Shown: piece by piece, positions 14,286 through 35,191 of the stretch | Numbering within the stretch: position 1 is the first letter of the stretch | How the letters are laid out: every line of letters begins with the position of its first letter | Virus record (IMG/VR): IMGVR_UViG_3300020036_009553 | Location: 32,001 to 96,000 of that record | Direction: 5' to 3' (one strand) | DNA: 64,000 nt | Source of the DNA: a virus | Taxonomy: Duplodnaviria; Caudoviricetes | Translations under genes and position numbers: made by a program | The notes under the pieces: model-generated | What the model was told of the DNA's origin: nothing | The model's input: the letters and a program-made list of their open reading frames with translations, nothing else | Databases searched by the model: none

Positions 14286-14290
14286 CACGA

Positions 14291-16910: not shown

Positions 16911-17374
16911 TGTTGACTTTGTGAGCCATTTGAGATATAATGGCTCCATCAACTGGAGAACAACATGACCACCACCCCTGTTATTGTTACTCGTGACTCT
17001 CTCACCAAAATGATCACCAACCCGAACGCTGAATACGTTAAACGCGTCCTTGGCAAGGCATTGGTGGCAATCTTCAAGAGGCAGACTGAAGCAGAACAAA
17101 CCACCGACTCCACTCAAAACGATAATGGGGTGGGGTTTGCGGGATGTGATGCACGTTCTGGGTCGCTCACAGCAAAGTTCTTCATGAAACACAACACTCT
17201 TGCTGACTGGCAGGTCGCTGCGTGGACACGCGTTGGAAAGAACGGATATGCCCGAATCTGCAAGTATCACGCTCAACTGAATGAAATTGCAACATCTCGT
17301 CCACAACGGACAGCAAGTCTGTAATTGTTGACTTTGTGAGCCATTTGAGATATAATGGCTCCATCAACTGGAGA
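16911..17374 (+). repeat. Identical 49 bp promoter cassettes (16911-16959, 17326-17374) flanking one gene
   Basis: TGTTGACTTTGTGAGCCATTTGAGATATAATGGCTCCATCAACTGGAGA occurs twice. Confidence 0.9.
16965..17324 (+). CDS. Hypothetical phage protein
   Basis: Own promoter cassette and RBS; NGVGFAGCDA motif. Confidence 0.8.
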   Translation: MTTTPVIVTRDSLTKMITNPNAEYVKRVLGKALVAIFKRQTEAEQTTDSTQNDNGVGFAGCDARSGSLTAKFFMKHNTLADWQVAAWTRVGKNGYARICKYHAQLNEIATSRPQRTASL

Positions 17375-17379
17375 TACAT

Positions 17380-17667
17380 ATGACGACATCTGTTGTTAGA
17401 AAACATGTGAAACAAATCAAACAAGTCGTTGCAAAGCACTACAATTTTTGGAGAGTGTTCAACGACAAGCGCCTATATGGTCGTCGTCTGAAATTCATGA
17501 AAAACGGATACAAATACACAGACGAAGAATACAAACAAATTGTTGATAACATCGTGAAGGAGTTGAAAGCTCACAATATCCCACACATCAAAGTGTACAA
17601 AGCAGTTAGTGTCCGTTCATTTTATGGGCCATACACGTTTCTGGCTGTTACGTTGATCGACGACTGA
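17380..17667 (+). CDS. Basic protein of the FNDKR..GRRLK family (paralogue of 29276, 30023)
   Basis: VFNDKRLYGRRLKF. Confidence 0.75.
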   Translation: MTTSVVRKHVKQIKQVVAKHYNFWRVFNDKRLYGRRLKFMKNGYKYTDEEYKQIVDNIVKELKAHNIPHIKVYKAVSVRSFYGPYTFLAVTLIDD

Positions 17668-17747
17668 CCACACTAAAGATTGTTGACTTTCGTCGTCAGT
17701 TGGTGGATAATGATCTTCATCAACTGACGACAACCGAGGAGATTCAA

Positions 17748-17990
17748 ATGAACAAAACTCTTGAACAAAGTTCCCTCATACCTCTTACCGAATATGCGAA
17801 ACGTGTGTGGAGCGCACCATCACTTGACGCAAAGCGTCAGATCATTCACGAGGCGATTGCGGTGTTCAAGTTCAAAGGAAAGGCTGAACGTTTTCGTCGT
17901 CAGATTGATGCTGAATGCAAGGCATCACGACTCGACCAGTTCGCCGCAAACTTGGTCTTACTCGAATCTGGTGACAAAGTAATTCACTGA
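17748..17990 (+). CDS. Hypothetical protein
   Basis: Hairpin promoter 17682-17731, GAGGAG RBS. Confidence 0.7.
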   Translation: MNKTLEQSSLIPLTEYAKRVWSAPSLDAKRQIIHEAIAVFKFKGKAERFRRQIDAECKASRLDQFAANLVLLESGDKVIH

Positions 17991-17995
17991 GAAAA

Positions 17996-18307
17996 TTGAT
18001 GAAAATCACAACATTCAACAAGTTGAAAGCTGAACTTCAACTCTATTTGTTGGAAACAGCATTAGTAGACAACCAAACAACGGATGACGATGTCAAGCGA
18101 TTTGTTGCCATGATGCTCGCAAGTGAATGTGCTGATATGAATCGTCGAGAAATGATCGACTTGTTCGTTGATGGAGTTCCGCCGATGACCAAAAAACGTG
18201 TTGTTGGATGGTTGAAAAACTGTGAGGAATGTGCAGAAAACGACGACGATGCACGTCCTCCCTGGCCCTTGTTGTTCAAAGAATTCTACGGACCAAAGAG
18301 TCGTTGA
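17996..18307 (+). CDS. Hypothetical protein
   Basis: Operonic ORF. Confidence 0.65.
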   Translation: MMKITTFNKLKAELQLYLLETALVDNQTTDDDVKRFVAMMLASECADMNRREMIDLFVDGVPPMTKKRVVGWLKNCEECAENDDDARPPWPLLFKEFYGPKSR

Positions 18308-18365
18308 CTTTGTGGTTCGGGTATGAGATAATACATTTTTCAACACACACGAGACGGAGTGATAA

Positions 18366-18704
18366 ATGTACAACGATGACGTTGAAATGAAGTACGGAGA
18401 TATCTACGAAATAGAGAAAGACTCTCCTCTTCTTGGCATGGTGACCGCCCTCAAAGAGGGGAAGACGATTACCGAATTCGAAGTGGAGGAAGATTGGAAA
18501 GACGACCACGAAATCTGTCTTGGATGTCGGGTAGTCGTCGATGGTGTTGAATATCGGGTCGGTTTGTTGTGGTTGAATTTCTGCGGAATTCGGATGGCAT
18601 TAGGAGCAGAATTTCAGGATGCCGAAAGTATCACATCGTTGACCGAATTCATTCTCGACAGCGCCACATTTGTCGATGACGACACCGATGAAGTTGATGA
18701 GTAG
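18366..18704 (+). CDS. Acidic protein (paralogue of 27040)
   Basis: EEDWKDDHEICLGCRVVVDG. Confidence 0.75.
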   Translation: MYNDDVEMKYGDIYEIEKDSPLLGMVTALKEGKTITEFEVEEDWKDDHEICLGCRVVVDGVEYRVGLLWLNFCGIRMALGAEFQDAESITSLTEFILDSATFVDDDTDEVDE

Positions 18705-19093
18705 AGATTAACATCTCCGTTGACGGAAGAGGACATTTGGTAGATAATGTCCTCTTTCCATCACCATCTCTCCTCATGTCCTATCATTTCCACTACCAAA
18801 TCATCAAACGAACTAACACTCGGTCAACATCCTATTCGTGGGCATCAATAAAGGCCGTATTAGATCGTAACGGTTTGTCATATGAACTCCCGAATGTCTT
18901 AATTGTGGATGTACGAGTCTCCTTTGACACCAGAGAAGAGGCCGTAATATTCCGTACTAGGTTTGAACAGGACTTGAGAATTGTCCACCGTAACGTAACG
19001 TACACAGTCAAAATAACCAAAACTTGAGTTGACATCTGTCGTCAGTTGGTGGATAATGATCTTCATCAACTGACGACACATGAGGAATTCTAA

Positions 19094-19867
19094 ATGATCA
19101 CTGCCACTCTTCACAAACAAGTTGTTGATACTGTTGTTGATGCATTGTCTACAGCTCAGACGAAGTACAAGACAGCGTTCAAGATGCCGTCAATCGTTTA
19201 TACCAAGCGTGGAACGACTGCAGGAACAGCTGACTACACCAAGTGGGAGATCAACCTCAATCCTGTTCTCCTCGTTGAAAATGTTGAGACGTTTCTCAAG
19301 CGCACTGTCATTCACGAAGTCGCTCACTTGGTTCATTTCATCGTTTGCCCAAAAGACCATGATCGTCGCTATGGCAAGAGAGATGTTCATGGGACAAATT
19401 GGCAGCGTGTGATGTCATCTTTGGGTGGCGAAGATGTGTCTCGTTGTCATTCATACGATGTGTCGTCAGTCATGCAAAACAGGGTGCGGTACGCACACAA
19501 GTGTTCAGTATGCGGCAACGAAGTCCAAGCAGGCCCCAAGTACCACAGCAGAATTGAAAACGGTGAGCGGTTCTTCCACAAGTCTTGTGGTCGTAATAGT
19601 TATCTCATGCCATCGTCGTCTACGGCAGTAAAAGCTACAACTGGTGTCAGCACACCAACGACGTCAAACAAATCGTCTACGGCGGTGAAAACACCAGCTA
19701 AAGGCAGTAAAATCCATCAGTGCTATGAGATGTACAAGATGTATCATCAAAAATACTCCAGGTCTATGATGATCAACGTATTCGTACAAAATTGTGACTG
19801 CACGCCTGCTGGGGCATCTACGTACTACCAAACATGTAAAAAAATGTACGATGCTGGTGTGGTATAA
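19094..19867 (+). CDS. SprT-like zinc metalloprotease with C-terminal GA.TYYQ domain
   Basis: RGTTAG.A, INLNPVLL.EN, HEVAH, HG..W..VM, zinc ribbon CSVCG; C-terminal CTPAGASTYYQ. Confidence 0.85.
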   Translation: MITATLHKQVVDTVVDALSTAQTKYKTAFKMPSIVYTKRGTTAGTADYTKWEINLNPVLLVENVETFLKRTVIHEVAHLVHFIVCPKDHDRRYGKRDVHGTNWQRVMSSLGGEDVSRCHSYDVSSVMQNRVRYAHKCSVCGNEVQAGPKYHSRIENGERFFHKSCGRNSYLMPSSSTAVKATTGVSTPTTSNKSSTAVKTPAKGSKIHQCYEMYKMYHQKYSRSMMINVFVQNCDCTPAGASTYYQTCKKMYDAGVV

Positions 19868-19934
19868 TCGTTGACCTAACGAGGGAATTAGAGGATAATT
19901 CCCTCATTGACTAACACAACCACGAAAGAAACAA

Positions 19935-20360
19935 ATGAACCTGACCACTACCCAAGTTCGCAACCTCGTCAATTTCATCTCGGCGAAGAATCCTTCAGTC
20001 AGAGAGCTCATGGAAGCTGGGGTGTTGTCCGTTGTTGCTGCAATGATGGACAATATCACGGAAGCTCCCGTCCCCACGTATGTGTATATGGACATGACTG
20101 AAGCCCTGAAATTTAGCTCCCAGATCAGCCCCAAAGTCTCCGGGATCAAGGCAATTCGGTTGTTAACTGATCTTGGATTGACAGAAGCAAAAGAATTGTA
20201 TGAGCAACTCTCTATTAACGATCACTCTCCCATAATTGGGCCAATCATGACTGTTGGGGATGGAGTGGATGAATCAGCGTTGAGGGTGCTGGTGGAAGAG
20301 ACGGAGAAAAGGTTTGATGCTAATGGTATCAGGGGAATTAAATATCTGGTGATGTGTTAG
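19935..20360 (+). CDS. Protein containing a ribosomal L7/L12 C-terminal-like motif
   Basis: KVSGIKAIRLLTDLGLTEAKELYE resembles bL12 K..VIK.VR..TGLGLKEAK.LVE. Confidence 0.65.
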   Translation: MNLTTTQVRNLVNFISAKNPSVRELMEAGVLSVVAAMMDNITEAPVPTYVYMDMTEALKFSSQISPKVSGIKAIRLLTDLGLTEAKELYEQLSINDHSPIIGPIMTVGDGVDESALRVLVEETEKRFDANGIRGIKYLVMC

Positions 20361-20638
20361 TCGTTGACACGGCAAGGGAATTAGAAGATAATTCCCTTGC
20401 CGTTAATACCCCCACGAAGGAATCAAATGAAAATCTCGTCAGACCAAGCTGGAACTCCTGTCAGGTTTTTCAAGGAAAGTGAGCGTGACTCAATCCGGGA
20501 ATTAGCGAGATTCATTCTCCTCGTGTTGTTAATGGAGGTATCTCCGTTGTTTGAAGAGGAGAATGTTATCAAACACAACGGCGTTGATTTCCCACCGAAT
20601 TCGTAAGATAATTAATTTTTGATAGAAAGGGTTACGTT

Positions 20639-20842
20639 ATGAAAAGACAACTTGGATTTACCCTCATTGAGCTACTGATCGTCGTTGCCATCGTGGGCAT
20701 CTTGGGAGCAATCGTTGTTCCAGCAGTTGGAAGATTGTTCAATGGAGGAGAAGCATCCACCGCATCATCTCCGCCACCACAGCAATTCATGGAACAGCAA
20801 GCTCCTCTCGTGGCTCCACGTCCGAGCAACGGACAGTACTAA
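20639..20842 (+). CDS. Miniature prepilin-type N-methylation-motif protein
   Basis: MKRQLG|FTLIELLIVVAIVGILGAIVVP, then a short Pro/Ser/Gln tail. Confidence 0.8.
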   Translation: MKRQLGFTLIELLIVVAIVGILGAIVVPAVGRLFNGGEASTASSPPPQQFMEQQAPLVAPRPSNGQY

Positions 20843-20845
20843 TCA

Positions 20846-21283
20846 ATGCTGGCCGCTCCACTAACTCCAGAATTGGCTACGATAATCGACAACATCGTAG
20901 CCAATTCTGAACCATTAGGCCCAGAATTTGAAAAGGTGTGGGCAGAGAATCATGATGTGCTATATGAGACGGATGGACTTGCGGAACGAAGCAGAGTTCC
21001 TGTGAACTGGAACGTTTTTGGAGAAAAATTCCAGTCCCTGTTTCATGACAAGGTAGCGGATTCGACGAAAACAGCCAGAATCTACCCAATATATGAGGGA
21101 GACACCGTTACGGTAATTGAAATATCGTTGTTTCCCACAGTTACGGTGTCCGAAGAAGAGGAACTAGCAGCAAGAGCAACTATACAATACTTGTGCAGAG
21201 ATTATCAACGGTACCACATTCGCAATGCATCAGAGTATCCTGGCACCACGTGCAGAGATTTATTGGTAGAAATAGTGTTGTAA
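20846..21283 (+). CDS. Hypothetical protein
   Basis: Operonic ORF. Confidence 0.6.
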   Translation: MLAAPLTPELATIIDNIVANSEPLGPEFEKVWAENHDVLYETDGLAERSRVPVNWNVFGEKFQSLFHDKVADSTKTARIYPIYEGDTVTVIEISLFPTVTVSEEEELAARATIQYLCRDYQRYHIRNASEYPGTTCRDLLVEIVL

Positions 21284-21339
21284 CGGTTGACATTTTTCAT
21301 TAAATACCGTATAATTACTCCATTAACTGGAGAAATCAA

Positions 21340-21570
21340 ATGACCGTTGCTGATATCAATGGCTTGGAACCTGATGGTTACTCCATTAACTGGAGAAAAG
21401 AAATGTTTGGTGATGTGCAGACAAAAGAGATGTTCTTCCTCTATTCCCGTCCGGAAGACTACACCATGTCACGACCCTTGACAAAAGAGGAAAATGATGC
21501 GAGAATCGCTGAAGATAACAAGCCCGTTCCAAGTCGGTTGTTATCATCTTTGATAGCTCGCATTGTATAA
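21340..21570 (+). CDS. Hypothetical protein
   Basis: Own promoter ~21287, GGAG RBS. Confidence 0.65.
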   Translation: MTVADINGLEPDGYSINWRKEMFGDVQTKEMFFLYSRPEDYTMSRPLTKEENDARIAEDNKPVPSRLLSSLIARIV

Positions 21571-21580
21571 ATACACAAAT

Positions 21581-21652
<72 letters not shown>

Positions 21653-21992
21653 CAGATCAATTGGTTACGAAGCGAGTACTTTTGCTGCTTCCGCGTTCAG
21701 TGCTACCATACCCTTGAGGAGATGTTCCTCAATAAACAGCACGTGTTGAGCATCGAGGTCGTTCCATGTATTAACTGTTTCGCATTCAACGACGCCCTTT
21801 GAATCGGTTAGTTCAAATGTAACCGTAACAGTCTTTTTGTTTGCCATTTCATTCCTTTCAAATTTCGGGCGCGAGAAACAATTCCTCGGCATGTTTATTT
21901 ATGTAAAATCGGCAATAGTGCTCCTTTTAATTAAAATTGTTGACTTCACTTGAACATTCCTGTATAATTTCTTCATTAACTGGAGACAATAA

Positions 21993-22214
21993 ATGACTGG
22001 TTGGGGATTTTTGAGAGAGCTTAACAAACTTTGCCACTTTCAAACAAGAGAGGGAAAGAAGGTTGGGCCGGTGAGTTCATCTGAATTGAAGAGATGGCTT
22101 CAACAAAAAGCTGTTCTTGTCAATGGTGAGCCTCTTGATTGGGACGAAGAGATGGACTTTGTGATCCATTCGTGTGTCCTCTTCCCGAAAGGTAATACGG
22201 TTACTTTGTGGTAG
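21993..22214 (+). CDS. Small S4-like hypothetical protein
   Basis: SSSELKRWLQQKAVLVNG resembles the S4 RNA-binding motif; own promoter. Confidence 0.6.
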   Translation: MTGWGFLRELNKLCHFQTREGKKVGPVSSSELKRWLQQKAVLVNGEPLDWDEEMDFVIHSCVLFPKGNTVTLW

Positions 22215-22468
22215 TTAGTTGACTTTGTTGTGTATGTAAAGTATAATGACTACACCAACTGACGGAGAGATGAAAATGAATACATGGAAATTTACCAAAG
22301 ATAATGCTACCTTCTGGGACACTTGTAGTATTGAGGTGGTTAATGAGTGGATCAGTAAGGGCTGGAACGCCGTTATCTGCCGGTAGAAGAAGACAGCTGC
22401 CCACCCAGCATGTTGTTGACATTGCTTGAACTTTCCTGTATAATCTGTTCATTAAATGGAGAAAACAG

Positions 22469-22840
22469 ATGTCCACAATCAATGAACAAATCGTTGCTCG
22501 TACCAAAATCTTGGTTGAGAGCCAAATTTTATACGATTGCCCGTCGTTTCCAACTGGAAGAGACCCGTACAACAATGTCGCGATCGACATCGGCCGTGAT
22601 ATAGCGGTTGAGACTATTGGGGAAACGGGCCTTCTCGATATTGTCAGGGGGGCTGAACTGCTTTCGGATGCTTCCCTCCTTCAACTTGCGGCTGAAATCA
22701 CACTTCACAAATTGTTCAGTTTCAATAGCTGGATTGAGGAAGTCAGGGATTATATGATCAAGCATCAAGATCAATGTGTTCCTTTGTGGAATTATATGGA
22801 ATCGTTGGGACTACCAGCGGTCGTTGAAAAAAGTCGTTGA
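22469..22840 (+). CDS. Hypothetical protein
   Basis: Own promoter ~22415, GGAG RBS. Confidence 0.7.
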   Translation: MSTINEQIVARTKILVESQILYDCPSFPTGRDPYNNVAIDIGRDIAVETIGETGLLDIVRGAELLSDASLLQLAAEITLHKLFSFNSWIEEVRDYMIKHQDQCVPLWNYMESLGLPAVVEKSR

Positions 22841-22934
22841 TTTCTCATTATAAATACAGTATAATATCTCCATCAAATAGAGAAAACAAATGAATTTTGC
22901 TGAATATAATATGTTCATCAAATGGAGAACACAA

Positions 22935-23210
22935 ATGAAGTTTGCTGACTTTGTACAGAGATGTCAACAACTTCTTCGGGAGAATCCCGAAACATCAACG
23001 ATGAAGGTATTCAACACATCGGTTATGGATTCTCCTCAACGGTTTGTGACGTCTGGGGTATATGTTGGATCTGTGACGTGTGAGGATCTAGGTGGTGAGT
23101 GTGAACGGTTTTTGATTACTGGTGATCCTGATGTAGCCCTTCTTGAACCGCTGAATGACGTTCCCGTTCAGTCATTCACAGTGGATTGTGTGGTCATTGA
23201 CGCGTATTGA
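22935..23210 (+). CDS. Hypothetical protein
   Basis: GGAG RBS before ATG 22935. Confidence 0.6.
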   Translation: MKFADFVQRCQQLLRENPETSTMKVFNTSVMDSPQRFVTSGVYVGSVTCEDLGGECERFLITGDPDVALLEPLNDVPVQSFTVDCVVIDAY

Positions 23211-23224
23211 GTATAAATAGTACA

Positions 23225-23629: not shown

Positions 23630-23708
23630 CGGAATGTCGCCTAGTCAGGTTATGGCACCTGCTTTGGGAGCAGGTATAACGAGAGTTCGAATCCCTCCAT
23701 TCCGACCA
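23630..23708 (+). tRNA. tRNA-Pro(TGG)
   Basis: CGGAATG/CATTCCG-A-CCA; CCTGC-TT-TGG-GA-GCAGG. Confidence 0.9.
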
Positions 23709-23733
23709 ATTGATTTTTATGAAAGGAGTTAAA

Positions 23734-23892: not shown

Positions 23893-23914
23893 TTTTTCCT
23901 TGAAAGGATTCAAA

Positions 23915-24195: not shown

Positions 24196-24390
24196 TTGAC
24201 ATTGAAGAGAAATTGACGTATAATGATCTTCATTGAATGAGAGATAAATTGGTTACGATAGAGCCTGATTCCACCACCGAGTGGATAGGGCCAAGAAGTC
24301 CGCAAGGACAGTATGCTAATCAACAATAAACCAAAATGTTTTTGTAGTAAAAAAGTAGTTGTCTTAACAAAGGAAAAGCAGTATAATGAT

Positions 24391-24550
24391 CTTGTTGTTG
24401 AGGGAATCAGGAAATAGAGTGAATTACGACGGAGAGCAGCCATGTACTTTTGCCAGGCATTCCGATCCACTTGATCCTGATTCAATAGTTAAAATGGTGA
24501 TTAGACATTCTAATTAGCCACCAGGAGGTGAGGCACCGATGGGCAGTTAA
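24391..24550 (+). ncRNA. Structured RNA unit 1, ending in a perfect SD and minigene ATG GGC AGT TAA
   Basis: Promoter TTGTCT-17-TATAAT; stem GAATCAGGA/TCCTGATTC; AGGAGGTGA 24523-24531; ATG 24539. Confidence 0.55.
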
Positions 24551-24694
24551 CTTGAGACACTTTAAAATATAGATAATAGTTAATTAAAGCGATTCACCCC
24601 AAGAGGAATCGGCCTCTTGGGGAACCCACCTGAGATGTCAATAATTAAAAAAGTTTCAGTTGTTGACATTTGATTCAAAATGTAGTAAAATGTA

Positions 24695-24872
24695 CTTGTT
24701 GTTGAGAGAGAAGTAAACGAACACAAATAATAACACCGGTCGGCGCATGGCCATTATACGACAGCCCAATTGCCACCGTTATGTTATGTGTATCGTCAAG
24801 GCTTCGTTAACCTTTAACATAAGTAAAAGTTACTTTAATGAACCGCCAGGAGGTGAGGCAAAAATGATTTAA
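24695..24872 (+). ncRNA. Structured RNA unit 2, ending in a perfect SD and minigene ATG ATT TAA
   Basis: Promoter TTGACA-17-TAAAAT; long imperfect hairpin; AGGAGGTGA 24848-24856; ATG 24864. Confidence 0.55.
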
Positions 24873-24904
24873 GATCCAAATATAATGTAAGTTTATTATA
24901 GAGG

Positions 24905-25238
24905 ATTAATAATTGTTACGCTTACGACTGTAGTGAATGGTGAAAGCAGGTAACTACACGAGTGGCTCTGGGAAACAAGGACAGACAGAATGCTGTCCGA
25001 AGAAGGGATGGAACGATTGAGAAATGGTTCCATGTGTGAAGAGCGTGAGGAGGGGCTACTTCACAAATTCTCTGAAAAATCCTTGATCGTCAGTTGAGGA
25101 TGCTCCGGAAGTACCTGGTGGTAGAAACTTCCGTGTAATTATTTCTTTAACAAAAGAGATAATATTGGTCAACCACATCCGAATTCATGGTTTGAGGGGT
25201 GGTAGTAGCGACAAATCGCTCCCATCCCTCTCTTTTTT
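24905..25238 (+). ncRNA. Putative multi-hairpin non-coding RNA
   Basis: No ORF; stems TGTAGT/ACTACA, GGACAG/CTGTCC, ATGGAAC/GTTCCAT, TGTGAAG/CTTCACA, GGAAGT/ACTTCC; U-tract end. Confidence 0.5.
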
Positions 25239-25303
25239 GTTGACATTATCGCCGATACGTTGTATAATGATCTTCATCAGCTGACAACACGAGGAGAAAG
25301 AAA

Positions 25304-25930
25304 ATGCAATTGTACACTATCGCAGCTCAAAGCAAGTACATGCTGTTCATTGAACAAATCGTCGACATTGAAGATGCTGGTGACGATTTCATTACGGCTG
25401 AAGAGATGTGCGAAATGACGGGCGAAGAGTTCAACGAAGCACGTAGGTATTACTTTGATGATCGTGTCTTTCGTCGTGATGCGATTAAGGAGGCACTCGG
25501 TGTTCTTGCTGACGAGATTCGCAAAACAGGCAAAAAGTCAGTTCTTATCAAAGATGATGAGTTGCTGGAGGTGTTTAAACAAGGGTATTCAATTTCTGAA
25601 TTCGCTGAAGGTTTTCGTCGTGTTGGTAACCGCTTGTTTTTACAAGAGAAAAAGCCAAATGGCCCCAAAAAGGCTAATATGAATGTGTTGGCTTATCGTG
25701 TACAACAAACTGTCAATAACGGCAACAAGTACGAGATCGAAATAAAGTATGCAAGTCATGACGTTCCTGGTACAATTGCGTTGTGCAAGAAGCTGGTTTC
25801 ATGGGAAGATATCTTGTGGGAAGACAACGGGTACAAAAACGTGAATGACGAAACGATCGGTTTTTGCAAGCAGATTTGGGACAATCCCAACATTTTCAAT
25901 ACTGCCAAAAAAGAAGCATCGCCCACTTGA
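25304..25930 (+). CDS. Hypothetical protein (208 aa)
   Basis: Promoter cassette 25239 (identical ~41 bp copy at 26631), GAGGAG RBS. Confidence 0.8.
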   Translation: MQLYTIAAQSKYMLFIEQIVDIEDAGDDFITAEEMCEMTGEEFNEARRYYFDDRVFRRDAIKEALGVLADEIRKTGKKSVLIKDDELLEVFKQGYSISEFAEGFRRVGNRLFLQEKKPNGPKKANMNVLAYRVQQTVNNGNKYEIEIKYASHDVPGTIALCKKLVSWEDILWEDNGYKNVNDETIGFCKQIWDNPNIFNTAKKEASPT

Positions 25931-26582: not shown

Positions 26583-26684
26583 CCTGAATGTTGTAATGTA
26601 AGAGGGCTGAAAGGCCCTCTTTTCGTTTCCGTTGACATTATCGCCGATACGTTGTATAATGATCTTCATCAACTGGAGACAATC

Positions 26685-26972: not shown

Positions 26973-27039
26973 GTTGACAATGGCTATCGGTTGTTGTATA
27001 ATGACTCCATCAACTGACAAATCAACCAAAGAAAATACC

Positions 27040-27342: not shown

Positions 27343-27404
27343 TTGTTGACTTGATGGAGTCATTGTTGTATAATGATCTTCATCAACTGACGAAAGGACC
27401 TCAA

Positions 27405-27719: not shown

Positions 27720-27791
27720 CAACAGTTGACATTTGAAGTTGATGGAGCTATAATGGCTCCATCAACTGACAAACACACAAGGAGAGACACG

Positions 27792-28139: not shown

Positions 28140-28317
28140 CCCTGATGGAGCTATAATGGCTCCATCAACTGACAACACCACATAAATAAGGACTGAAATG
28201 GAAACGATCAAACTGGTAGCAATGGTGGTAGTGGTTATTCTCTTTGCCCCAACCATGTGCCGCATCGTCGCCGCTCTGGCAAGTGACGAAGACTTGACCA
28301 AATAATAAGGAACCACT

Positions 28318-28563: not shown

Positions 28564-28712
28564 TATCCATCCACTAGTAAACATTCTACGTCATATGCAA
28601 GACAAGGGATGTTTACTAGTGGAACCGTGTTGTAATGGAGTCGCAATCACCACGAGCTCGACTATATTAGTTTTGCTTCGTATCTGGCAATCTTTCCAAG
28701 GAGTTCTATGCC

Positions 28713-29024
28713 ATGACGATTAGAGCGTTTACCAGGATAGCTGGAACCCTGAAAGAATCCGTGGAAGATGGTGCCTCTCCACAATTTTTCCTATCCGAGC
28801 TCTACGATCGTGGGGATCTCCTTCAGCTAATGAAGTATGAGGCTATGGAAACAATGTGCGAGATCATAGCTTCTCATGGGAATGGAACATATGATGTTCG
28901 GTTTGAGGACGGCCACGTCCTCAACAAGGTCCGGCATCATTTCCTCAATGGAGTAACCGAGCACGGGCTGGCGGTGTCGTGGACAACACTTCAAGCTAGT
29001 GACGATTGTGTGCTACTGGGATAA
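28713..29024 (+). CDS. Hypothetical protein
   Basis: AAGGAG RBS. Confidence 0.6.
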   Translation: MTIRAFTRIAGTLKESVEDGASPQFFLSELYDRGDLLQLMKYEAMETMCEIIASHGNGTYDVRFEDGHVLNKVRHHFLNGVTEHGLAVSWTTLQASDDCVLLG

Positions 29025-29275
29025 AGGAAGCCTACAACATGTGGTCATTTTCAATAGACGTGTTTTATCTTTGAGCCTTCTCCGTCTGCCCTATAAATGA
29101 CTTACAAAGTCAAATTTGCCCTTTGAAGTTAGAAACATCATCTTCAATCCAATGTAGAAATTGTACTTGGTTGTCTCTGTGAAATCAACAGGGAAGAACT
29201 GCCCTATTGACTTTTTGTCCATCTTGTTGTATAATGGTTCTTGTCAACTGACAAACAACTCGAGGAGAAAATGAG

Positions 29276-29548
29276 ATGGTACCAATTGGGCGGAGATTAA
29301 AAGGGTGCATTCAACGAGTTGCAAAAACAGAAGAAGTGGTGATCGATAATCCGTTGATTTTCAACGATAAAAGGAAAACTTTTCGGCGGTTGAAATGGTG
29401 GGGTGGGTATGGGTGTTATTATAAACAAAACAGGGAAAGGTTTTTTCAAAAACTTGATGAAGAAGTCAAGAGGGAATTTGGTAACGAGTTGATTGTTGCC
29501 CAAGTTGACGGTGAATCGTATTGTGTGCATATTCACTTGAATAATTGA
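29276..29548 (+). CDS. FNDKR..RRLKW family protein
   Basis: IFNDKRKTFRRLKWWGGY...FFQKLDEEVKREFG. Confidence 0.7.
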   Translation: MVPIGRRLKGCIQRVAKTEEVVIDNPLIFNDKRKTFRRLKWWGGYGCYYKQNRERFFQKLDEEVKREFGNELIVAQVDGESYCVHIHLNN

Positions 29549-29628
29549 CAAAAGTCAACGTTGATGTTTGGCAAGAATCATGTATAATGGTTCTTGTCAA
29601 CTGACAAACAACTTGAGGAGAACACGAG

Positions 29629-29901
29629 ATGCCCAAAACCAAGAAAAACGAGAAAGTTGTTTTTACTGTTGCTGTTCCTGTAACGGATGCCAAACTTCAG
29701 ACCTTCATCAATAAGATCAACAAATACTGGCTGGATGAGGATGATGAGAGACTGACGCTTGAACGGGTTGTAAATGATGTTTCTCTGTTGACTTACATTT
29801 GCGAATCTGCTGTTGAAGATGGAGTCGCGATGTATGACCCAGAAACTTTTGCAGGAGAAGGGGATGGGTGGTGTGACTGGAAGGATTATGTGACAAAATA
29901 A
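29629..29901 (+). CDS. Acidic hypothetical protein
   Basis: Own promoter, GAGGAG RBS, downstream terminator. Confidence 0.7.
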   Translation: MPKTKKNEKVVFTVAVPVTDAKLQTFINKINKYWLDEDDERLTLERVVNDVSLLTYICESAVEDGVAMYDPETFAGEGDGWCDWKDYVTK

Positions 29902-30022
29902 CATTAAAGAAAAAGGGGGCTGATTGCTTGCTCCCTTTTTGTTATCGGTTACGTTGACTTCTTCAGGTGGTTGGTATATAATCGTCCTTGTCGATTGACA
30001 AACAACGTTTACGGAAGGACAT

Positions 30023-30322
30023 ATGATGGCAACCAATACCAGTCGTTTTCATGATTGCATCGTTCGTACGAGGACTGATGCTAACCGGAACGTAACCGTA
30101 GCAATCTTCGATGACAAGCGGGTACATGGCCGTCGTCTGAAGTGGTGGGACGGATATCATGAATACCAAGGCAATGACAAGGAACTGTTTTTCAAGCGGC
30201 TTGACGAGGAGGTTCGGAAAGAATTCGGCAGACTGGTCAAAGCAACCAGGATCAAAAAGGATCAGAACAAATATTCGGGCGGCAACTGCATTTCGTATTG
30301 TCTGTATCTTCATAACAGCTGA
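30023..30322 (+). CDS. FDDKR..GRRLKW family protein
   Basis: IFDDKRVHGRRLKWWDGY...FFKRLDEEVRKEFG. Confidence 0.75.
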   Translation: MMATNTSRFHDCIVRTRTDANRNVTVAIFDDKRVHGRRLKWWDGYHEYQGNDKELFFKRLDEEVRKEFGRLVKATRIKKDQNKYSGGNCISYCLYLHNS

Positions 30323-30400
30323 CAACTGTTGACAAGGCAAGGACGATGTTGTATAATCGTCCTTGTCGATTGACAAACAACATTCACAAAGGAAACATCA

Positions 30401-30595
30401 ATGAAAACATCCTTCAACTTCAACCTGTTCGTCTTTTGGGTAATTACGCTTTTGTTCGGTTTGTCGGCGGCAAATGCATCGGTGACCGTCGTGAACGAAG
30501 TTCCTGAGCCATCCACGATGTTCATGGTCGTTCTTGCCGTTGCGATCATGTTCGTCTGCGACTACCTTGGCCGTCGTTTCCATCGTCGATCGTAA
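30401..30595 (+). CDS. Miniature PEP-CTERM protein
   Basis: Signal peptide (..SAANA), about 7 residues, then VPEPST, TM helix and RRFHRRS. Confidence 0.75.
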   Translation: MKTSFNFNLFVFWVITLLFGLSAANASVTVVNEVPEPSTMFMVVLAVAIMFVCDYLGRRFHRRS

Positions 30596-30597
30596 TC

Positions 30598-30648
30598 GTT
30601 GTCAGTTGATGGAGTCATTGGAGTATAATGGCTCCATCAACTGACAAC
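30598..30648 (+). promoter_or_regulatory. Palindromic sigma70 promoter cassette (22 bp arms, one T.G pair)
   Basis: GTTGTCAGTTGATGGAGTCATT-GGAGTAT-AATGGCTCCATCAACTGACAAC; related copies at 30992, 32848, 33199, 27725, 28128. Confidence 0.85.
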
Positions 30649-30665
30649 AACCAAGGAGAAACAAA

Positions 30666-30986
30666 ATGAAAACCATCACAGCAACAGGAGAATTTGTGGT
30701 ATCATTCAACTGCTCGTTTGGTGGTATTGACTGTGGTGAGTCCAACAGGTACACGGTGGATTATGCAGGGGATGATGTATCTTCCCTTGCAAGGGAAGTC
30801 ATTGATGATGATCCAAACTTCCCCATGGACTTCATCACAAAAGCACAAGCTGCTGAAATGCTTGGTCCTCACGATGAGGATAATTGGGCGGTGAGTCTGC
30901 CTGATTTTGTTGTGGGGGTATTTGTTGAGAAAGGAAACGAGCTCACATGGCCTGTTGCCATAATGGTTTCATCCAAATACTTCTAA
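30666..30986 (+). CDS. Acidic hypothetical protein
   Basis: AAGGAG RBS in cassette. Confidence 0.75.
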   Translation: MKTITATGEFVVSFNCSFGGIDCGESNRYTVDYAGDDVSSLAREVIDDDPNFPMDFITKAQAAEMLGPHDEDNWAVSLPDFVVGVFVEKGNELTWPVAIMVSSKYF

Positions 30987-31057
30987 CAGCCGTTGACTTG
31001 ATGGAGTCATTGGAGTATAATGGCTCCATCAACTGACAACAACCAAGGAGAAACAAA

Positions 31058-31288
31058 ATGAAAACCACCACTCAAACTCAGTTTCAACAAATTGACGGCT
31101 ATCTTTCATTGGAGGAAGCCACCGCAAGTTTGGTACACGTTGCGAAGTGCATGCAATCCACCCACACCGCCGCATCCTTCAACAGCAACAAAGACATCCA
31201 AGTTCGCCTGTTTGATGCGAGAAAAGCAAGTGTCAGAGTTCTCCTTAGCCTGATCGAACAGTATATTGACCAAATACCTGACGAGTAA
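31058..31288 (+). CDS. Hypothetical protein
   Basis: Same cassette and MKT start as 30666. Confidence 0.7.
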   Translation: MKTTTQTQFQQIDGYLSLEEATASLVHVAKCMQSTHTAASFNSNKDIQVRLFDARKASVRVLLSLIEQYIDQIPDE

Positions 31289-31356
31289 TTTGTGTTGACT
31301 TCTGTTGTTAGTTATTGTATACTTTGTTTTTCAACTAACAACAGAAGGAAAACAAA

Positions 31357-31773
31357 ATGTTTTCAAAAAGAATGTACATTAACGATGGTGACATGGGCAC
31401 TTTTGTTGGTGAACAAGTTGTTGGTTTAACGGAAACGTGGGTTAATAGTGATGGAACAACAACTGAATTTGATTACTGGAAGGAGTTGTTTGAAAATCAC
31501 TTTGTTGTGTACAACAACAAAGAGGAGTGCTTGAAAGAGTTTAATGAATGTGTTTTTGATGAAGATAAACATTTTAAGACTGACAAGGAATACTTTAGTA
31601 ACATGAAACGTATCAGTAACGTAAAACGTATGATTACGTTGTTGTGTGAAAAAGAAGAAGGGAAACAGGGCAAGTGGTTTGTTGGAGGAAACGGGGAATA
31701 TGATGTTATTGTTATTGTTGGGTTTGAGTTTGAAAGTGATAACGATGAACAAATAACATATTACGAAGAATAA
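31357..31773 (+). CDS. Acidic protein (paralogue of 31999-32361)
   Basis: INDGDMG...KEEC..EF...KWFVGGNGEYDV; no Ala or Pro. Confidence 0.75.
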   Translation: MFSKRMYINDGDMGTFVGEQVVGLTETWVNSDGTTTEFDYWKELFENHFVVYNNKEECLKEFNECVFDEDKHFKTDKEYFSNMKRISNVKRMITLLCEKEEGKQGKWFVGGNGEYDVIVIVGFEFESDNDEQITYYEE

Positions 31774-31782
31774 GTGTAACAA

Positions 31783-31817
31783 AACGAAAAGAACTGTACT
31801 GTACAGTTCTTTTCGTT
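31783..31817. terminator. Bidirectional terminator
   Basis: AACGAAAAGAACTGTAC-T-GTACAGTTCTTTTCGTT. Confidence 0.75.
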
Positions 31818-31998
31818 GTCTTCTCTGGTTAGGCTCAGTAATTGACTAGTAAACATTTAAGACCCTGAAACATCCAAGGGGATTGGAGTAATGATTGATC
31901 GCAAGGGATCGAACAGATACTCAACAGGGCATGTGATAAGTATAACTAATAAAAGAGAGAGAGAATTAATCTCTCTCTCTCTTCTCTCTTCTTCTTAT

Positions 31999-32361
31999 TT
32001 ACTCATACACAAATTCATAAATTTCATCAAGTTCATAAAGTTCATAATCAAATTCATCAACATTAACTTCACAAACAAAGCCCCATAATACTTCATATTC
32101 ACCATCATCACCCATAAACCACTTTTTCTCTTCATCATATAATAAAATCATTTCTTTAAAATCTTTCAGCCCTTTTTCATAAACTTCTCTCAACTCTTCT
32201 TTCTCAACTCTCAACATTTTAACAAACTTCTCTTCACACTCTTCTTGAGTGCCCCACTCTTTATTCAGTTCATCAAAATAAACTTCACTCTCTTTCATCA
32301 TTTTCAACATAAAACCTCTATCACTATCACTAATACAAACAACTTTCTCAAACATATTCAT
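31999..32361 (-). CDS. Very acidic protein encoded by a nearly C-free coding strand
   Basis: ISDSDRG...EEC...KWFMGDDGEYEV; promoter TTGTTT-17-GATAAT (~32417-32445); terminator 31951-31983. Confidence 0.8.
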   Translation of the reverse strand: MNMFEKVVCISDSDRGFMLKMMKESEVYFDELNKEWGTQEECEEKFVKMLRVEKEELREVYEKGLKDFKEMILLYDEEKKWFMGDDGEYEVLWGFVCEVNVDEFDYELYELDEIYEFVYE

Positions 32362-32605
32362 TTTTCTCTCTCTTTCTCAATCAATTAATATTAACTTCTC
32401 TCTTTACAACAAGAACATTATCTCACAAAACAAACAAAAAAACAACTACTTTTTCAAACATACAGTCTCTCATTAAATAACAACACCATACTACAATCCA
32501 ACACACCATTCAACAACTCTAATTCTAAATGAACAGTCCTGTTGATTTTAATAGAGAGATATTGTATAATGGTTTCATCAACTGACAACACACAAGGAGA
32601 TTCAA

Positions 32606-32842
32606 ATGACCAGATTGTTATTCCTTGAAATCAACCTGTACACAGGGAGTGTTGAAGATGTAAAACAACTGGAGAACGACAACAGACCACTCAAGGATCA
32701 ATTGGATGATTATCTTATGTCCGAGTCGGAGTGGGAACAAGTCCCTAGTTCAAATCCTTATTACCAAATCCACCAAACCAAAACGTCCGTCACTTTCCAG
32801 GGAGAGGAAGGATCGTTCCAATTGCTCCTTGTTGATCTGTAA
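32606..32842 (+). CDS. Small acidic protein
   Basis: Cassette promoter, AAGGAG RBS. Confidence 0.7.
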   Translation: MTRLLFLEINLYTGSVEDVKQLENDNRPLKDQLDDYLMSESEWEQVPSSNPYYQIHQTKTSVTFQGEEGSFQLLLVDL

Positions 32843-32912
32843 AGATTGTTGACTTGATGGAGCCATTGTTGTATAATGTCTCCATCAACTGACAACAACC
32901 AAGGAGATTCAA

Positions 32913-33197
32913 ATGATCAAGGTGTTGTATCGTGAAGGCGATGTTCATTCCACAGAGGAACTGGCAGAATTCTCAGTTGCTGGTTGTTTGGCTTCAATCA
33001 ATCTGACACAAGACGATTGTGTTCCTGAGAACGATGACGATGCAACAGCATTGACTGTTCAGTCGTATGATATCGGTGGTCGCAACGACTCCTGTCGCCA
33101 ACCAAGTCGCCGTGATCAATTGGTTGTGGTGTGCTATTCCAATAGCGATGGCGAACTTAGGACATGGACTGGTCCTGCTTCTTGTTTTGTGGGCTGA
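32913..33197 (+). CDS. Small acidic protein
   Basis: Cassette promoter, AAGGAG RBS. Confidence 0.7.
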   Translation: MIKVLYREGDVHSTEELAEFSVAGCLASINLTQDDCVPENDDDATALTVQSYDIGGRNDSCRQPSRRDQLVVVCYSNSDGELRTWTGPASCFVG

Positions 33198-33263
33198 TGT
33201 TGACTTGATGGAGTCATTGGAGTATAATGGCTCCATCAACTGACAACACACAAGGAGATTCAA

Positions 33264-33788
33264 ATGAACTTCGCCATTCTCGAAGAACTGATGAAAGAAG
33301 TCAATGGTGCGACGTTCGTATCGATCGATACGATCACGAGCGTGACGTTACCAGGTGGCAAGAAAAACGAGTTCAATGGTCGTGTGACGAAGTTGGTGGA
33401 AGGATCGTCGGTCATGGTCTTTCAAAACAAGAACTCGAATGCTTACGAGAACATGGTCAACAGGAGACTGGAGAAGGAGGGAGTTTCAGTCGCAACGTTC
33501 AAAGTCGGTCCTCGTGCGTGGGGCACTCGTATCCAAGATACTCCATTCGTCGAACACAACGGACAGATGTACCTTGAAGTCATCTTCCTTCACGCAGGGG
33601 AAGCATCGTACCTGCTCGACGGCCAAAAGACAACAGACCCACGCTGCATTCCTCCTTCGAAGGAAACTGGTGAAGGGAACGGTTTCGAGCAGGGCGGCTT
33701 GAACAACAAGGTGATTATTCGTACCTACAAGGTCGATTCCATCGTCGGCATTACGATCAACAAACAGCGATTCGAGATCAAGAGGTAA
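33264..33788 (+). CDS. Hypothetical phage protein
   Basis: Cassette promoter; YENMVNRRL..EG, PRAWG.R...PFVEHNG..YLE. Confidence 0.8.
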   Translation: MNFAILEELMKEVNGATFVSIDTITSVTLPGGKKNEFNGRVTKLVEGSSVMVFQNKNSNAYENMVNRRLEKEGVSVATFKVGPRAWGTRIQDTPFVEHNGQMYLEVIFLHAGEASYLLDGQKTTDPRCIPPSKETGEGNGFEQGGLNNKVIIRTYKVDSIVGITINKQRFEIKR

Positions 33789-33792
33789 CATA

Positions 33793-33852
33793 ATGTTGCA
33801 TTCTCCTCTTCGATATTGTACAATGACTTCTTTGAAGAGGAGAATGCAACAT
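33793..33852 (+). promoter_or_regulatory. Promoter within a perfect 19 bp inverted repeat covering the SD and start codon
   Basis: ATGTTGCATTCTCCTCTTC ... GAAGAGGAGAATGCAACAT; TTGCAT-17-TACAAT. Confidence 0.8.
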
Positions 33853-34093
33853 GGTACAAAGAATCAAAGTACAGGGAAGGCTTTGTGTGTATCGTGATGG
33901 ACACATTAAGCAGTTTCTTGCTGCGGAATTAATCGTGGGAAGGGAACGGTTTCATTATTATCCCTGTCCGAAATGTTTTGAGGATCTCGTCACTGCCCTT
34001 GATAATGAGTGTGACATTGAAGTTGTGGTGAATGGTGGAGATGATGTGTGGGTGAGAGGTCGTAATCCGAGAAATCCGAAACGATTGTCATGA
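33851..34093 (+). CDS. Hypothetical protein (CPKC)
   Basis: GAGGAG RBS. Confidence 0.65.
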   Translation: MVQRIKVQGRLCVYRDGHIKQFLAAELIVGRERFHYYPCPKCFEDLVTALDNECDIEVVVNGGDDVWVRGRNPRNPKRLS

Positions 34094-34159
34094 TTTTTTC
34101 TTGACTTGAAAGAATTGATGTGAGATAATGAACGTTCTTTTAAGTTGAGGAGAAACAAC

Positions 34160-34345
34160 ATGAACACCATCACCCCCCTTTCCAACGATTTATATGTGTA
34201 CTTTGATGCAACTGGTGCAGGAAGCATGCCTAGTGTTGTTGCAGGCCCCTTTCCTACACAAGAAGCGGCCGATCAATACATGATCGCTGAAGGGATGACT
34301 GATCCTCAGTTGTACTTCACCGATGTCCTGTACGACGAGGAATAA
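34160..34345 (+). CDS. Small acidic protein
   Basis: GAGGAG RBS; AGPFPTQEAAD. Confidence 0.65.
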   Translation: MNTITPLSNDLYVYFDATGAGSMPSVVAGPFPTQEAADQYMIAEGMTDPQLYFTDVLYDEE

Positions 34346-34407
34346 AAAGCAGCGTTGTATCTTCTTCAGTAAGGTTGTATAATGTCTTCTTTGACGAGGA
34401 GAGACAA

Positions 34408-34728
34408 ATGAAAAATATCACCTGCGAGTGTATCACACTTCAAGTTCAGGGAGATGGAAAAGTTTTGGTGTTTGATGGGTTCGACAGGTTTGATATTAAA
34501 ATGTTGACGAATGGACAGGGCGCCGGCGATTGTGTCAAAGAACAAATTTTTGAAATGAAGGAGTTTTTGGCTGAGGAAGAGGTTGAATTTGATGAAAATG
34601 AGTTCAAACAGAAAGAGGAGGAGTTCTTTGCGTTGCTGGGGCAAAAAAAGAACGACAACGTGATGAAAATCGTTTTGTGGAGTAGTGAATATGATAGTGC
34701 GGTAAGTGTGATGTATCTGAAAGAATGA
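34408..34728 (+). CDS. Acidic protein
   Basis: GAGGAG RBS; E-rich. Confidence 0.7.
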   Translation: MKNITCECITLQVQGDGKVLVFDGFDRFDIKMLTNGQGAGDCVKEQIFEMKEFLAEEEVEFDENEFKQKEEEFFALLGQKKNDNVMKIVLWSSEYDSAVSVMYLKE

Positions 34729-34745
34729 AGTAGTTATGAGACAAC

Positions 34746-34776
34746 AATAAAGGGAGATCTCAGTCTCCCTTTATTG
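34746..34776. terminator. Bidirectional terminator between convergent genes
   Basis: CAATAAAGGGAGA-TCTCAG-TCTCCCTTTATTG. Confidence 0.8.
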
Positions 34777-34792
34777 TGTGGTGATGTGATCG

Positions 34793-35104
34793 TTACTTCA
34801 CTACTTTGGGACGATGTGCACAGTAAAAGATGACTGCCACCACACATTCATCCGAATTAACGAACACGGTAGTGATGGTTCCTTCCCCCACTGATGCGAA
34901 ACGATCACGGAGATGATGTGTACGATCAATGACGACATCATCTCCCTTCTTGTTGAGGAACTTCAACACCGTGTCTTCGAGGAGGGAGAGATCATTACCC
35001 ACCCAGTCGATGGTGTGAGTGTCCTCACCACCTCCGACGATGATAGGATCGAGGACACTACCACACTGACAGTTGTGTGAACATCCATACCGATATGACT
35101 TCAT
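34793..35104 (-). CDS. Hypothetical protein
   Basis: GAGGAG RBS and minus-strand promoter 35130-35159. Confidence 0.7.
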   Translation of the reverse strand: MKSYRYGCSHNCQCGSVLDPIIVGGGEDTHTIDWVGNDLSLLEDTVLKFLNKKGDDVVIDRTHHLRDRFASVGEGTITTVFVNSDECVVAVIFYCAHRPKVVK

Positions 35105-35128
35105 GTCTACTCCTCTCATTAAAGAAGT

Positions 35129-35191
35129 CATTATACATCATTGTGAGTCGTGAGTCAACTGTTGACTTCTTTGATTGAATGATGTATAATG
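35129..35191. promoter_or_regulatory. Back-to-back divergent sigma70 promoters
   Basis: CATTATACATCATT...GTCAAC-T-GTTGAC...AATGATGTATAATG. Confidence 0.8.

Follow-up and report, generated by a model that had tools for sequence, protein, structure and literature searches.

The window analysed here, a 64,000-nucleotide stretch of DNA from an uncultivated virus of the class Caudoviricetes (positions 32001-96000 of the 128-kb IMG/VR virus record IMGVR_UViG_3300020036_009553, CheckV completeness 57%), carries downstream of its rIIA and rIIB genes a long array of early gene cassettes, in which about half of the promoters, not almost all, are combined with the arms of a stem-loop. Judged by its sequence, this array is a clear further example of the PeSL (promoter-early stem-loop) elements, and not a new kind of element or mechanism. 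PeSLs were defined in phages RB49 and phi1 as near-consensus sigma-70 promoters with a stem-loop, situated between the ORFan genes of hyperplastic regions (PMC2839356). The same features are found here, namely a near-consensus early promoter, a stem-loop within or next to it, and an intergenic position among small ORFans, with a stop codon upstream and a Shine-Dalgarno (SD) sequence and start codon at the 3' end. As to what the stems do, we consider it probable, with moderate confidence, that the elements are PeSL-type composites of a hyperplastic early region whose stems act as generic hairpins on RNA that reads through from the preceding gene.

Some 40 promoters of the sigma-70 type serve the array, which consists mostly of ORFan genes and also includes two tRNAs and two small RNA units. 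The exact form GTTGAC-N18-TATAAT (TTGACx, a 17-nt spacer and TATAAT) occurs 25 times in the window, against 0.06 expected, and a relaxed scan of the + strand from 1 to 36000, with at least five matches of six in each hexamer and a 17-nt spacer, returned 43 sites. An earlier sequence-only reading of this DNA had put a promoter at or over the preceding stop codon of almost every early gene, and for the promoters this was confirmed: within the array the first base of the -35 lies anywhere from 4 nt ahead of the end of that codon to 15 nt beyond it. The cassette genes have 35-260 codons, and the gaps between them, from 10.6 kb to 35.13-35.19 kb, are mostly 55-80 nt long. Eight of ten cassette proteins had no Pfam family, and the proteins are mutually unrelated, with 4 weak pairs among 64 open reading frames (ORFs). 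Near-identical promoter copies flank genes at 16907/17322 (86% over 77 nt, core identical), at 25239/26631 and at 30606/30998 (99% over 74 nt), as had been described from the sequence. Since the proteins are unrelated, the flanking copies are not relics of gene duplication.

The stems are a property of individual promoters. When the 32 promoters between 16.9 and 35.2 kb were folded as 75-nt segments against shuffled controls, 17 gave z below -2, the most extreme values being -12.3 (30598), -8.3 (33795) and -7.7 (19029). Pairing each 5' half with the 3' half of the same promoter gave a mean duplex energy of -15.6 kcal/mol; with shuffled 3' halves the mean was -11.5, and with those taken from other promoters it was -11.7. 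Shared motifs thus do not account for the complementarity, which is particular to each element. Among 153 distinct elements from this phage and its relatives, a stem score of at least 8 was reached by 27%, against 4.3% of shuffles, and a score of at least 10 by 16%, against 0.3%. The stems listed in the sequence-only reading are all present, and their enrichment over shuffled promoters bears it out; its phrase 'almost every early gene', if applied to the stems, overstates how common they are.

The geometry of the stems varies within narrow bounds. Relative to the first base of the -10, the dyad centre of the best ungapped stems falls between roughly 2 nt upstream and 6 nt downstream. The spacer supplies the 5' arm, which sometimes reaches the -35, and the 3' arm begins in or after the -10, passes through the discriminator and extends into the first 6-13 transcribed bases, counted from the predicted +1. 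The loop holds the whole -10 at 27737 and 28143 and, in most copies, the first three bases of the -10; with 5-19 nt, the loops are compatible with RNA hairpins.

As the sequence-only reading had proposed, arm sequence and register differ between copies and structure is kept. The stems fall into at least 7 registers and have at least 10 arm sequences unrelated to one another; their centres never lie more than about 6 nt from the -10. Pairing was followed in two ungapped alignments of same-register elements, metagenome relatives included, whose members were chosen for having stems: 89% of the cells are paired in the first alignment, against 30-55% when the partner is slid by 1-3 columns, and 92% in the second, against 29-52% when slid. 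Changes on both sides of a pair were seen in 6 of the 13 pairs of the first alignment and in 10 of the 15 pairs of the second. A direct comparison is offered by the contig L080, a relative that carries an ortholog of the gene at 25304-25930 (79% identical in DNA). Its stem family, GATGTGGCTATT/AATAGCCACATC, is separated from that of the present phage, GATGGAGTCATT/AATGGCTCCATC, by three double compensatory changes plus one change from G.U to C-G.

A conserved leader, CATCAACTGAC, follows many of the promoters; with at most one mismatch it occurs 20 times, against 1.7 expected. The minus-strand matches at 17695, 19041 and 30601 coincide with 5' arms of stems, which are thus inverted leader copies. 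Judged by the spacing, transcription is predicted to start at the A of cATCAACUGAC, 7 nt downstream of the -10. No viral contig matched an exact 24-mer of the element. With a degenerate pattern (TATAAT, 3 nt, T, 1 nt, CATCAACTGAC), 7 stretches were matched in viral contigs and 74 in metagenome contigs. About 35 of the latter, some of them on contigs of 330-375 kb, have a correctly spaced -35 and, downstream, an SD and ATG, and are genuine promoters. In these relatives the stem takes further positions: wholly within the spacer, with the -35 paired with bases after the -10, or, as in L030, with the spacer paired with the SD.

The first transcribed bases are themselves conserved, as (C)ATCAACTGAC(A/G)A, in about 20 promoters of the window (for example, 17718, 27008, 30635 and 33234) and in the relatives L028, L037, L047, L064, L080 and G001. 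The leader also marks the approximately 35 promoters on metagenome contigs, which are up to 375 kb long, and the discriminator just upstream of it varies freely. At the corresponding initial bases T7 A1 has CCATCGAGAG. It is possible that the conserved leader makes for optimal initiation or gives early mRNAs a common 5'-end signal. No description of the motif was found in a literature search, which returned only unrelated primer matches.

Kinship with the mobile early-promoter and stem-loop cassettes of T4-type phages had been recognized from the sequence, and it stands. The sequence-only reading had also implied a contrast, in that here the stem spans the promoter, and this part has to be withdrawn. 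Five stem positions were listed for PeSLs, the commonest lying between the two boxes or overlapping the -10, with G-T pairs marked (PMC2839356). Our scan of RB49 gave 39 promoter elements, 23 of them with a stem score of at least 7; one class has GGGGATC..GATCCCC inside the spacer, and in 10 of the 23 the stem is centred on the first bases of the -10, as in GGGTGTAT-AGCATA-ATACACCC, where the 3' arm runs to about +1. Because every sequence-level feature of PeSLs is present in the array, the promoter-spanning stem is no departure from the family.

The likeness to RB49 and phi1 is close. In both cases a near-perfect TTGACA-N17-TATAAT lies between small ORFans, with a stop codon just upstream and the SD and ATG at the 3' end; the stem-loop is in or across the promoter, contains G-T pairs and recurs in repeated copies that flank single genes. 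The 10 RB49 elements centred on the -10 also share the present layout: the spacer provides the 5' arm, the loop takes in the beginning of the -10, and the 3' arm extends to about +1. There are also differences: the arms here are longer (up to 15-22 bp, compared with 7-10 bp in RB49) and take in 6-13 nt of the transcript, the form most often seen in RB49, with GGGGATC..GATCCCC within the spacer, is rare here, and the leader CATCAACTGAC has CCATCGAAAC as its counterpart in RB49. In the original work one PeSL stem cut reporter expression as strongly as rrnB T1, and flanking PeSL copies recombined to minicircles, with the RB49 crossover in the loop; hairpin activity was addressed there with a single construct (PMC2839356). 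Terminator activity and minicircles have thus been shown for those phages.

PeSLs were later extended to T4/PST and KVP40/nt-1, where the promoter is closely preceded by the stem (A3-4G3-loop-C3T3-4 in nt-1; PMC4122927). This form, too, is represented in the array, by the hairpins upstream of the promoters at 14290-14348 and 29910-29982 and, more loosely, at 25194-25268 and 26600-26660. Dense elements in an ORFan-rich region are common to all these phages. For KVP40/nt-1 and T4/PST the figure legends put the stem ahead of the -35, and the promoters match the consensus less well (PMC4122927), whereas most stems here are embedded in promoters that are at consensus. The PA5oct paper contains nothing on embedded stems.

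The arrangement could be explained as follows. Into the roughly 70 nt between a stop and a start codon, each unit fits a near-consensus sigma-70 promoter, the conserved leader and an SD, and in about half of the units hairpin arms use the bases that the hexamers leave free, pairing the spacer with the discriminator and the first transcribed bases. Since free bases are found solely in the spacer and in the discriminator and leader, such a hairpin must have the -10 in its loop, which explains the stem geometry without any link to polymerase contacts. As the 5' arm is upstream of the predicted +1, the promoter's own mRNA would be free of the hairpin, and only RNA from the upstream cassette could form it in full; the sequence-only reading had likewise confined the full hairpin to read-through RNA or unwound DNA, and in this it was right. 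In read-through RNA, we infer, the hairpin would be a generic structural stop or barrier, at which read-through is paused or attenuated and which shields the upstream message at its 3' end, so that each one-gene unit is insulated. Ordinary terminators would perform the same job at other junctions of the array, and in a few copies the hairpin would also hide the ribosome site of the next gene. The near-identical repeats of 45-75 nt may, in addition, be substrates for homologous recombination, by which cassettes could be reordered, deleted or inserted.

Three observations suggest that the hairpin serves as a terminator-like element for RNA that comes from the preceding cassette: the stems abut stop codons, at one orthologous junction L080 has a stem in place of the terminator of this phage, and the stems at 33795 and 34094 cover the SD. 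The four terminator-preceded promoters lie 45-52 nt after the stop codon and are mostly without an embedded stem; embedded stems are found where the -35 abuts the stop codon and there is no room upstream. In L080 the ortholog of the 25240 promoter has no terminator and has an embedded 12-bp stem. Intrinsic (Rho-independent) termination by the embedded stems was considered and rejected, no U-run following the stem; hairpins with a U-run were found solely among the separate upstream hairpins, at 14290, 25194, 26600 and 29910. Given the missing U-run, pausing or attenuation, or a barrier to 3' exonucleases, would be more likely than classical termination.

The variety of stem sequences and registers argues for a generic hairpin and not for a sequence-specific operator. 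An operator for a dimeric DNA-binding regulator was rejected, as the arms differ between promoters and change on both sides with pairing kept, and an RNA of specific folded shape was excluded by the same variety. Intergenic hairpins that need no U-tract and set the stability of the upstream message are familiar from the REP palindromes and the early RNase III hairpins of T7. The stems here resemble them as intergenic hairpins in what would be polycistronic RNA; they differ in that REP and the T7 sites have conserved sequences or stems of about 20 bp, with no promoter overlap. Cutting by RNase III had been among the roles put forward in the sequence-only reading. By length this fits the two longest stems, at 30598 (22 bp) and 33795 (19 bp), but most stems, of 8-16 bp, are too short for the roughly 20 bp of double-stranded RNA of a T7-type site. 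Another known arrangement is that of the T4 genes e, soc, 49 and I-TevI, where a promoter lies inside a hairpin, so that read-through RNA hides the SD and AUG and promoter-initiated RNA is open. The same may apply to the elements at 33795-33853 and 34094-34155; in T4, however, a late promoter provides a temporal switch, whereas the promoters here are early sigma-70 promoters whose SD is mostly uncovered by the stem.

The order of genes among relatives fits modular exchange at the elements, although mediation by the elements themselves is not proven at 35-79% identity. In L064, the orthologs of the 11672 and 17380 genes stand before rIIA and not after rIIB; in L037, those of the 31357 and 30666 genes have swapped order and are separated by other genes; and in L080, a gene like that at 10651 lies 1 kb from the ortholog of the 25304 gene. 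Between L080 and this phage, homology at the DNA level sets in directly behind the -10 of the 25240 element, the one breakpoint placed inside an element.

Several findings weigh against stems that act on read-through RNA and cassettes that are exchanged at the elements. The embedded stems run into A/C-rich sequence, for example CTGACAAC, and none was returned by the terminator scan. About 12 promoters of the array have neither an embedded stem nor an upstream terminator, and the hairpin is therefore not obligatory. Internal mismatches in 42 stems (9 G.T, 2 A.C) weakly favour folding of the sense strand, but the bias in folding energy between sense and antisense strands (-1.6 kcal/mol, against -0.9 in shuffles) is not significant (p = 0.14 with composition control); the earlier statement that most mismatches are G.T on the sense strand thus holds as a raw count and lapses as a strand bias. 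As the members of the two alignments were chosen for their stems, the counts show that pairing is kept with different letters, and not that it is enriched. Finally, the relatives are so diverged that a rearrangement breakpoint could be tied to an element in the one case of 25240 only. The individual elements are listed in Table 1.

Table 1. Cassette array, terminator-preceded promoters and promoter stems in the window (stems are given as 5' arm / 3' arm; z, folding score against shuffles)
Feature	Position	Strand	Details
Whole array of early cassettes, downstream of rIIA/rIIB	10599-35191	+	Mostly one gene each, occasionally two
Stem outside the array, 5002-5013 / 5029-5040, one A.C	5002-5040	+	Promoter at 4993; z -3.1
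Composite unit: A-run/G-run hairpin and T-run terminator 14290-14318, promoter 14320-14348	14290-14348	+	KVP40/nt-1 PeSL form
Promoter with 8-bp stem, GAGCCATT 16923-16930 / AATGGCTC 16939-16946	16913-16946	+	Identical copy 17328-17361
Promoter with 14-bp stem, 17692-17705 / 17718-17731, one G.T	17683-17731	+	z -3.8; 5' arm is an inverted leader copy
Promoter with 11-bp stem, 18727-18737 / 18746-18756	18720-18756	+	z -4.6
Sister of the 17683 element, 14-bp stem, 19038-19051 / 19064-19077, one G.T	19029-19077	+	z -7.7
Promoter with 10-bp stem, 19881-19890 / 19896-19905	19871-19905	+	TAAT of -10 within 3' arm
Promoter with perfect 15-bp stem, 20369-20383 / 20389-20403	20364-20403	+	z -4.2
Canonical terminator 25194-25238, then plain promoter 25240-25268	25194-25268	+	No embedded stem
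Canonical terminator 26600-26628, then plain promoter 26632-26660	26600-26660	+	Same arrangement at the orthologous place in G001
Promoter with bulged stem, 27351-27364 / 27372-27386	27346-27386	+	z -2.7
Promoter with 12-bp stem, 27737-27748 / 27756-27767	27726-27767	+	Loop TATAATG
Shorter sister stem of 27737	28143-28151 / 28159-28167	+	
Canonical A-run/G-run terminator 29910-29940, promoter 29954-29982	29910-29982	+	No significant embedded stem
Promoter with 10-bp stem, 30338-30347 / 30356-30365	30329-30365	+	z -4.5
Longest stem, 22 bp, 30598-30619 / 30627-30648, one T.G	30598-30648	+	z -12.3; relative to the 30993 copy, a 2-nt insertion lengthens the stem and spoils the -35 (TTGTCA, 19-nt spacer)
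Promoter with 14-bp stem, 30998-31011 / 31019-31032, one T.G	30993-31032	+	Sisters 32849-32888 and 33200-33239
Promoter with perfect 15-bp stem, 31299-31313 / 31333-31347	31295-31347	+	19-nt loop with the -10; z -3.9
19-bp stem, 33795-33813 / 33832-33850, one G.T	33795-33853	+	z -8.3; -35 (TTGCAT) in 5' arm, SD in 3' arm, which ends 1 nt before ATG at 33851
G.U-rich stem, 34094-34114 / 34135-34155	34094-34155	+	z -4.4; spans -35 and SD of gene 34160
Divergent back-to-back consensus promoters	35130-35159; 35161-35190	-; +	Downstream end of the array

The variation in gene order could also be read as a sign that the stems act in DNA. A hairpin or cruciform centred on the easily melted -10 would then be a preferred site of breakage, strand exchange or template switching at cassette borders, and the structure itself, beyond the homology of the repeats, would drive the gain and loss of cassettes. 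The dyad always falls on the AT-rich -10, recombination functions of the T4 type (UvsX and a gp32-like single-stranded DNA-binding protein, SSB) are encoded, and the 5' arm of the 30598 copy has the appearance of a leader sequence introduced by templated copying; a recombination role at the DNA level would also be compatible with the RB49 crossover data. On the other hand, many loops are 8-19 nt long and several stems contain G.T, both poor for cruciform extrusion, and the excess of G.T over A.C mismatches favours one strand. The ordinary RNA terminator that this phage uses at 25240, orthologous to the embedded stem of L080, fits badly with an action in DNA, as do the two stems that cover the SD and, in one case, come within 1 nt of the AUG; an extension of this sort is meaningful only in RNA. 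No structure-specific recombinase was found adjoining the array. On balance, we regard such a role of the stems in DNA as possible but unlikely.

The literal nature of some arms raises a different doubt, since several 5' arms are inverted copies of the leader motif. Gene conversion or template switching between quasi-palindromic promoters might spread inverted leader copies into the tolerant spacer, in which case the stems would be a non-adaptive by-product; orthologous promoters do gain and lose stems between relatives, and about a third of the promoters are without any structure. Yet there are stems without the leader and with unrelated sequences (18727, 19881, 20369, 30338, 31299 and 33795), double changes keep the complementarity, and the feature is present in phages as distant as RB49 and G001. 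Embedded stems and canonical terminators also appear to substitute for each other, and a mere by-product is, in our judgement, distinctly improbable.

Two more specific proposals fare worse. Integron attC sites act as folded single strands for the dedicated integrase IntI, and integron cassettes are promoterless. By analogy only, the array shares with them one-gene cassette borders and a folded inverted repeat of which structure and not sequence is conserved; no such recombinase was seen here, however, and each unit has its own promoter. It is very unlikely that the hairpins are structure-defined recombination sites of this kind, folding around the -10 in single-stranded or unwound DNA, with the loop cut or exchanged by a structure-specific T4-type enzyme and single genes excised as circles and re-inserted at any border irrespective of arm sequence. 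The stems might, alternatively, tune the promoter, with an extruded non-template hairpin presenting the -10 as single-stranded DNA, or a cruciform blocking RNA polymerase, such that initiation would depend on topology. Region 2 of sigma-70 does read the -10 as single-stranded DNA, the early promoters of phage N4 are hairpins, and T-12, A-11 and T-10 are in the loop of most copies (the whole hexamer at 27737 and 28143). But most copies have the final three positions of the -10, T-7 among them, within the stem, and the promoters, already at consensus, need no help. In G001 and RB49, stems lie wholly in the spacer or pair the -10, and there is therefore no fixed relation to polymerase contacts; promoter tuning accordingly appears highly improbable.

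General translational insulation, in which the read-through hairpin would hide the ribosome-binding site (RBS) and each gene would be translated only from its own promoter's transcript, is the most doubtful of the explanations considered: the predicted probability that the RBS is unpaired falls from 0.85 in the own transcript to 0.00 in read-through RNA at 33796, in the 33795 element, and from 0.52 to 0.19 at 34101, with drops also at 32849 and 21940, and the relative L030 pairs its spacer with the SD, but over all 30 elements the RBS is not less accessible behind its real upstream sequence (0.42) than behind a shuffled one (0.48, p = 0.09), and the 3' arm of most copies stops 10-20 nt short of the SD. 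The occlusion of the RBS put forward in the sequence-only reading thus survives for two to four copies (33795 and 34094, less so 32849 and 21940) and not as a general function.

The phage itself is best treated as a distant uncultivated member of the T4-like assemblage, probably large, at about 225 kb. This placement is based on rIIA (7090-9348) and rIIB (9412-10368), both in the window, on a UvsX-like recombinase, a gp32-like SSB and a gp44-like clamp loader encoded elsewhere in the record, and on the relative G001, whose major capsid protein is of the Gp23 type. Elsewhere, the record also encodes a giant protein similar to a baseplate wedge subunit; the capsid gene is not in this fragment, which is 57% complete. 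The closest rIIA among phage records is that of KVP40-like Vibrio phages, at 35-37% identity. Neither a megablast of 6 kb against phage records for relatives at the DNA level nor tblastn of one cassette protein against the same records gave a match, and a query with rIIB recovered no related loci. With G001, of 257 kb, about 25 proteins are shared at 27-63% identity in the part compared. The T4 late-promoter motif TATAAATA is not enriched (6 found, 3.3 expected). A QueE-like radical SAM protein is encoded in the same record, 27 kb before the window (L010:4035-4934); it is 47-48% identical to versions from Stenotrophomonas phages and 63% identical to that of G001, and it hints at 7-deazaguanine modification of the phage DNA.

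Some of the cassettes hold genes or RNAs that deserve mention in their own right. The gene at 19094-19867 (+) codes for a protein with a SprT-like metalloprotease domain (Pfam E = 9e-17), of which the G001 homolog is 33% identical. A 67-residue ORF at 20639-20842 (+) begins MKRQLGFTLIELLIV and has the N-terminal methylation motif of type IV pilins (Pfam N_methyl, E = 2.7e-9); a pilin-like protein is unusual among early phage genes. The gene at 15335-15898 contains 4-5 tandem 21-nt repeats (15629-15733, +), which give a repeated seven-residue unit. A search of 10000-36500 with Rfam 15 at the gathering score matched only the two tRNAs, at 21581-21652 (62 bits) and 23630-23705 (55 bits), both on the + strand, and no other described RNA family. 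Two promoter-driven units, at 24359-24550 and 24663-24872 (+), have no long ORF. Their predicted RNAs (at 24394 and 24698) both begin GUUGUUGAG and end in AGGAGGUGAGGCA, followed by a minigene of 2-3 codons. The 5' GUUGUUG of these small RNAs is complementary to CAACAAC after CUGA, a 7-mer present in just 3-4 leaders (30635, 31027 and 32883). A gene-poor gap of 500 nt in the array contains a (GA)n/(TC)n palindrome, AAGAGAGAGAGAATTAATCTCTCTCTCTCTT, at 31953-31985, and a terminator-like 16-bp hairpin lies in the same region at 31783-31817. Downstream of the array, and also on the + strand, are genes for a protein with the N-terminal domain of GmrSD (40468-41337), an RNA ligase (41659-42291) and a protein with a Cache sensor domain (47255-48037), a domain unusual for a phage.

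Taken as PeSL elements, the cassettes described here take this family beyond the cultured T4-like phages, into a lineage of large phages that is widespread and uncultivated. The array is an unusually clean one, with about 40 promoters in 25 kb and at least 10 independent stem sequences. The terminators that appear to stand in for stems at some of its junctions offer a testable argument, namely that the stems would do the work of a terminator when there is no room for one, and the array should be a good substrate for experiments on what PeSL hairpins do.

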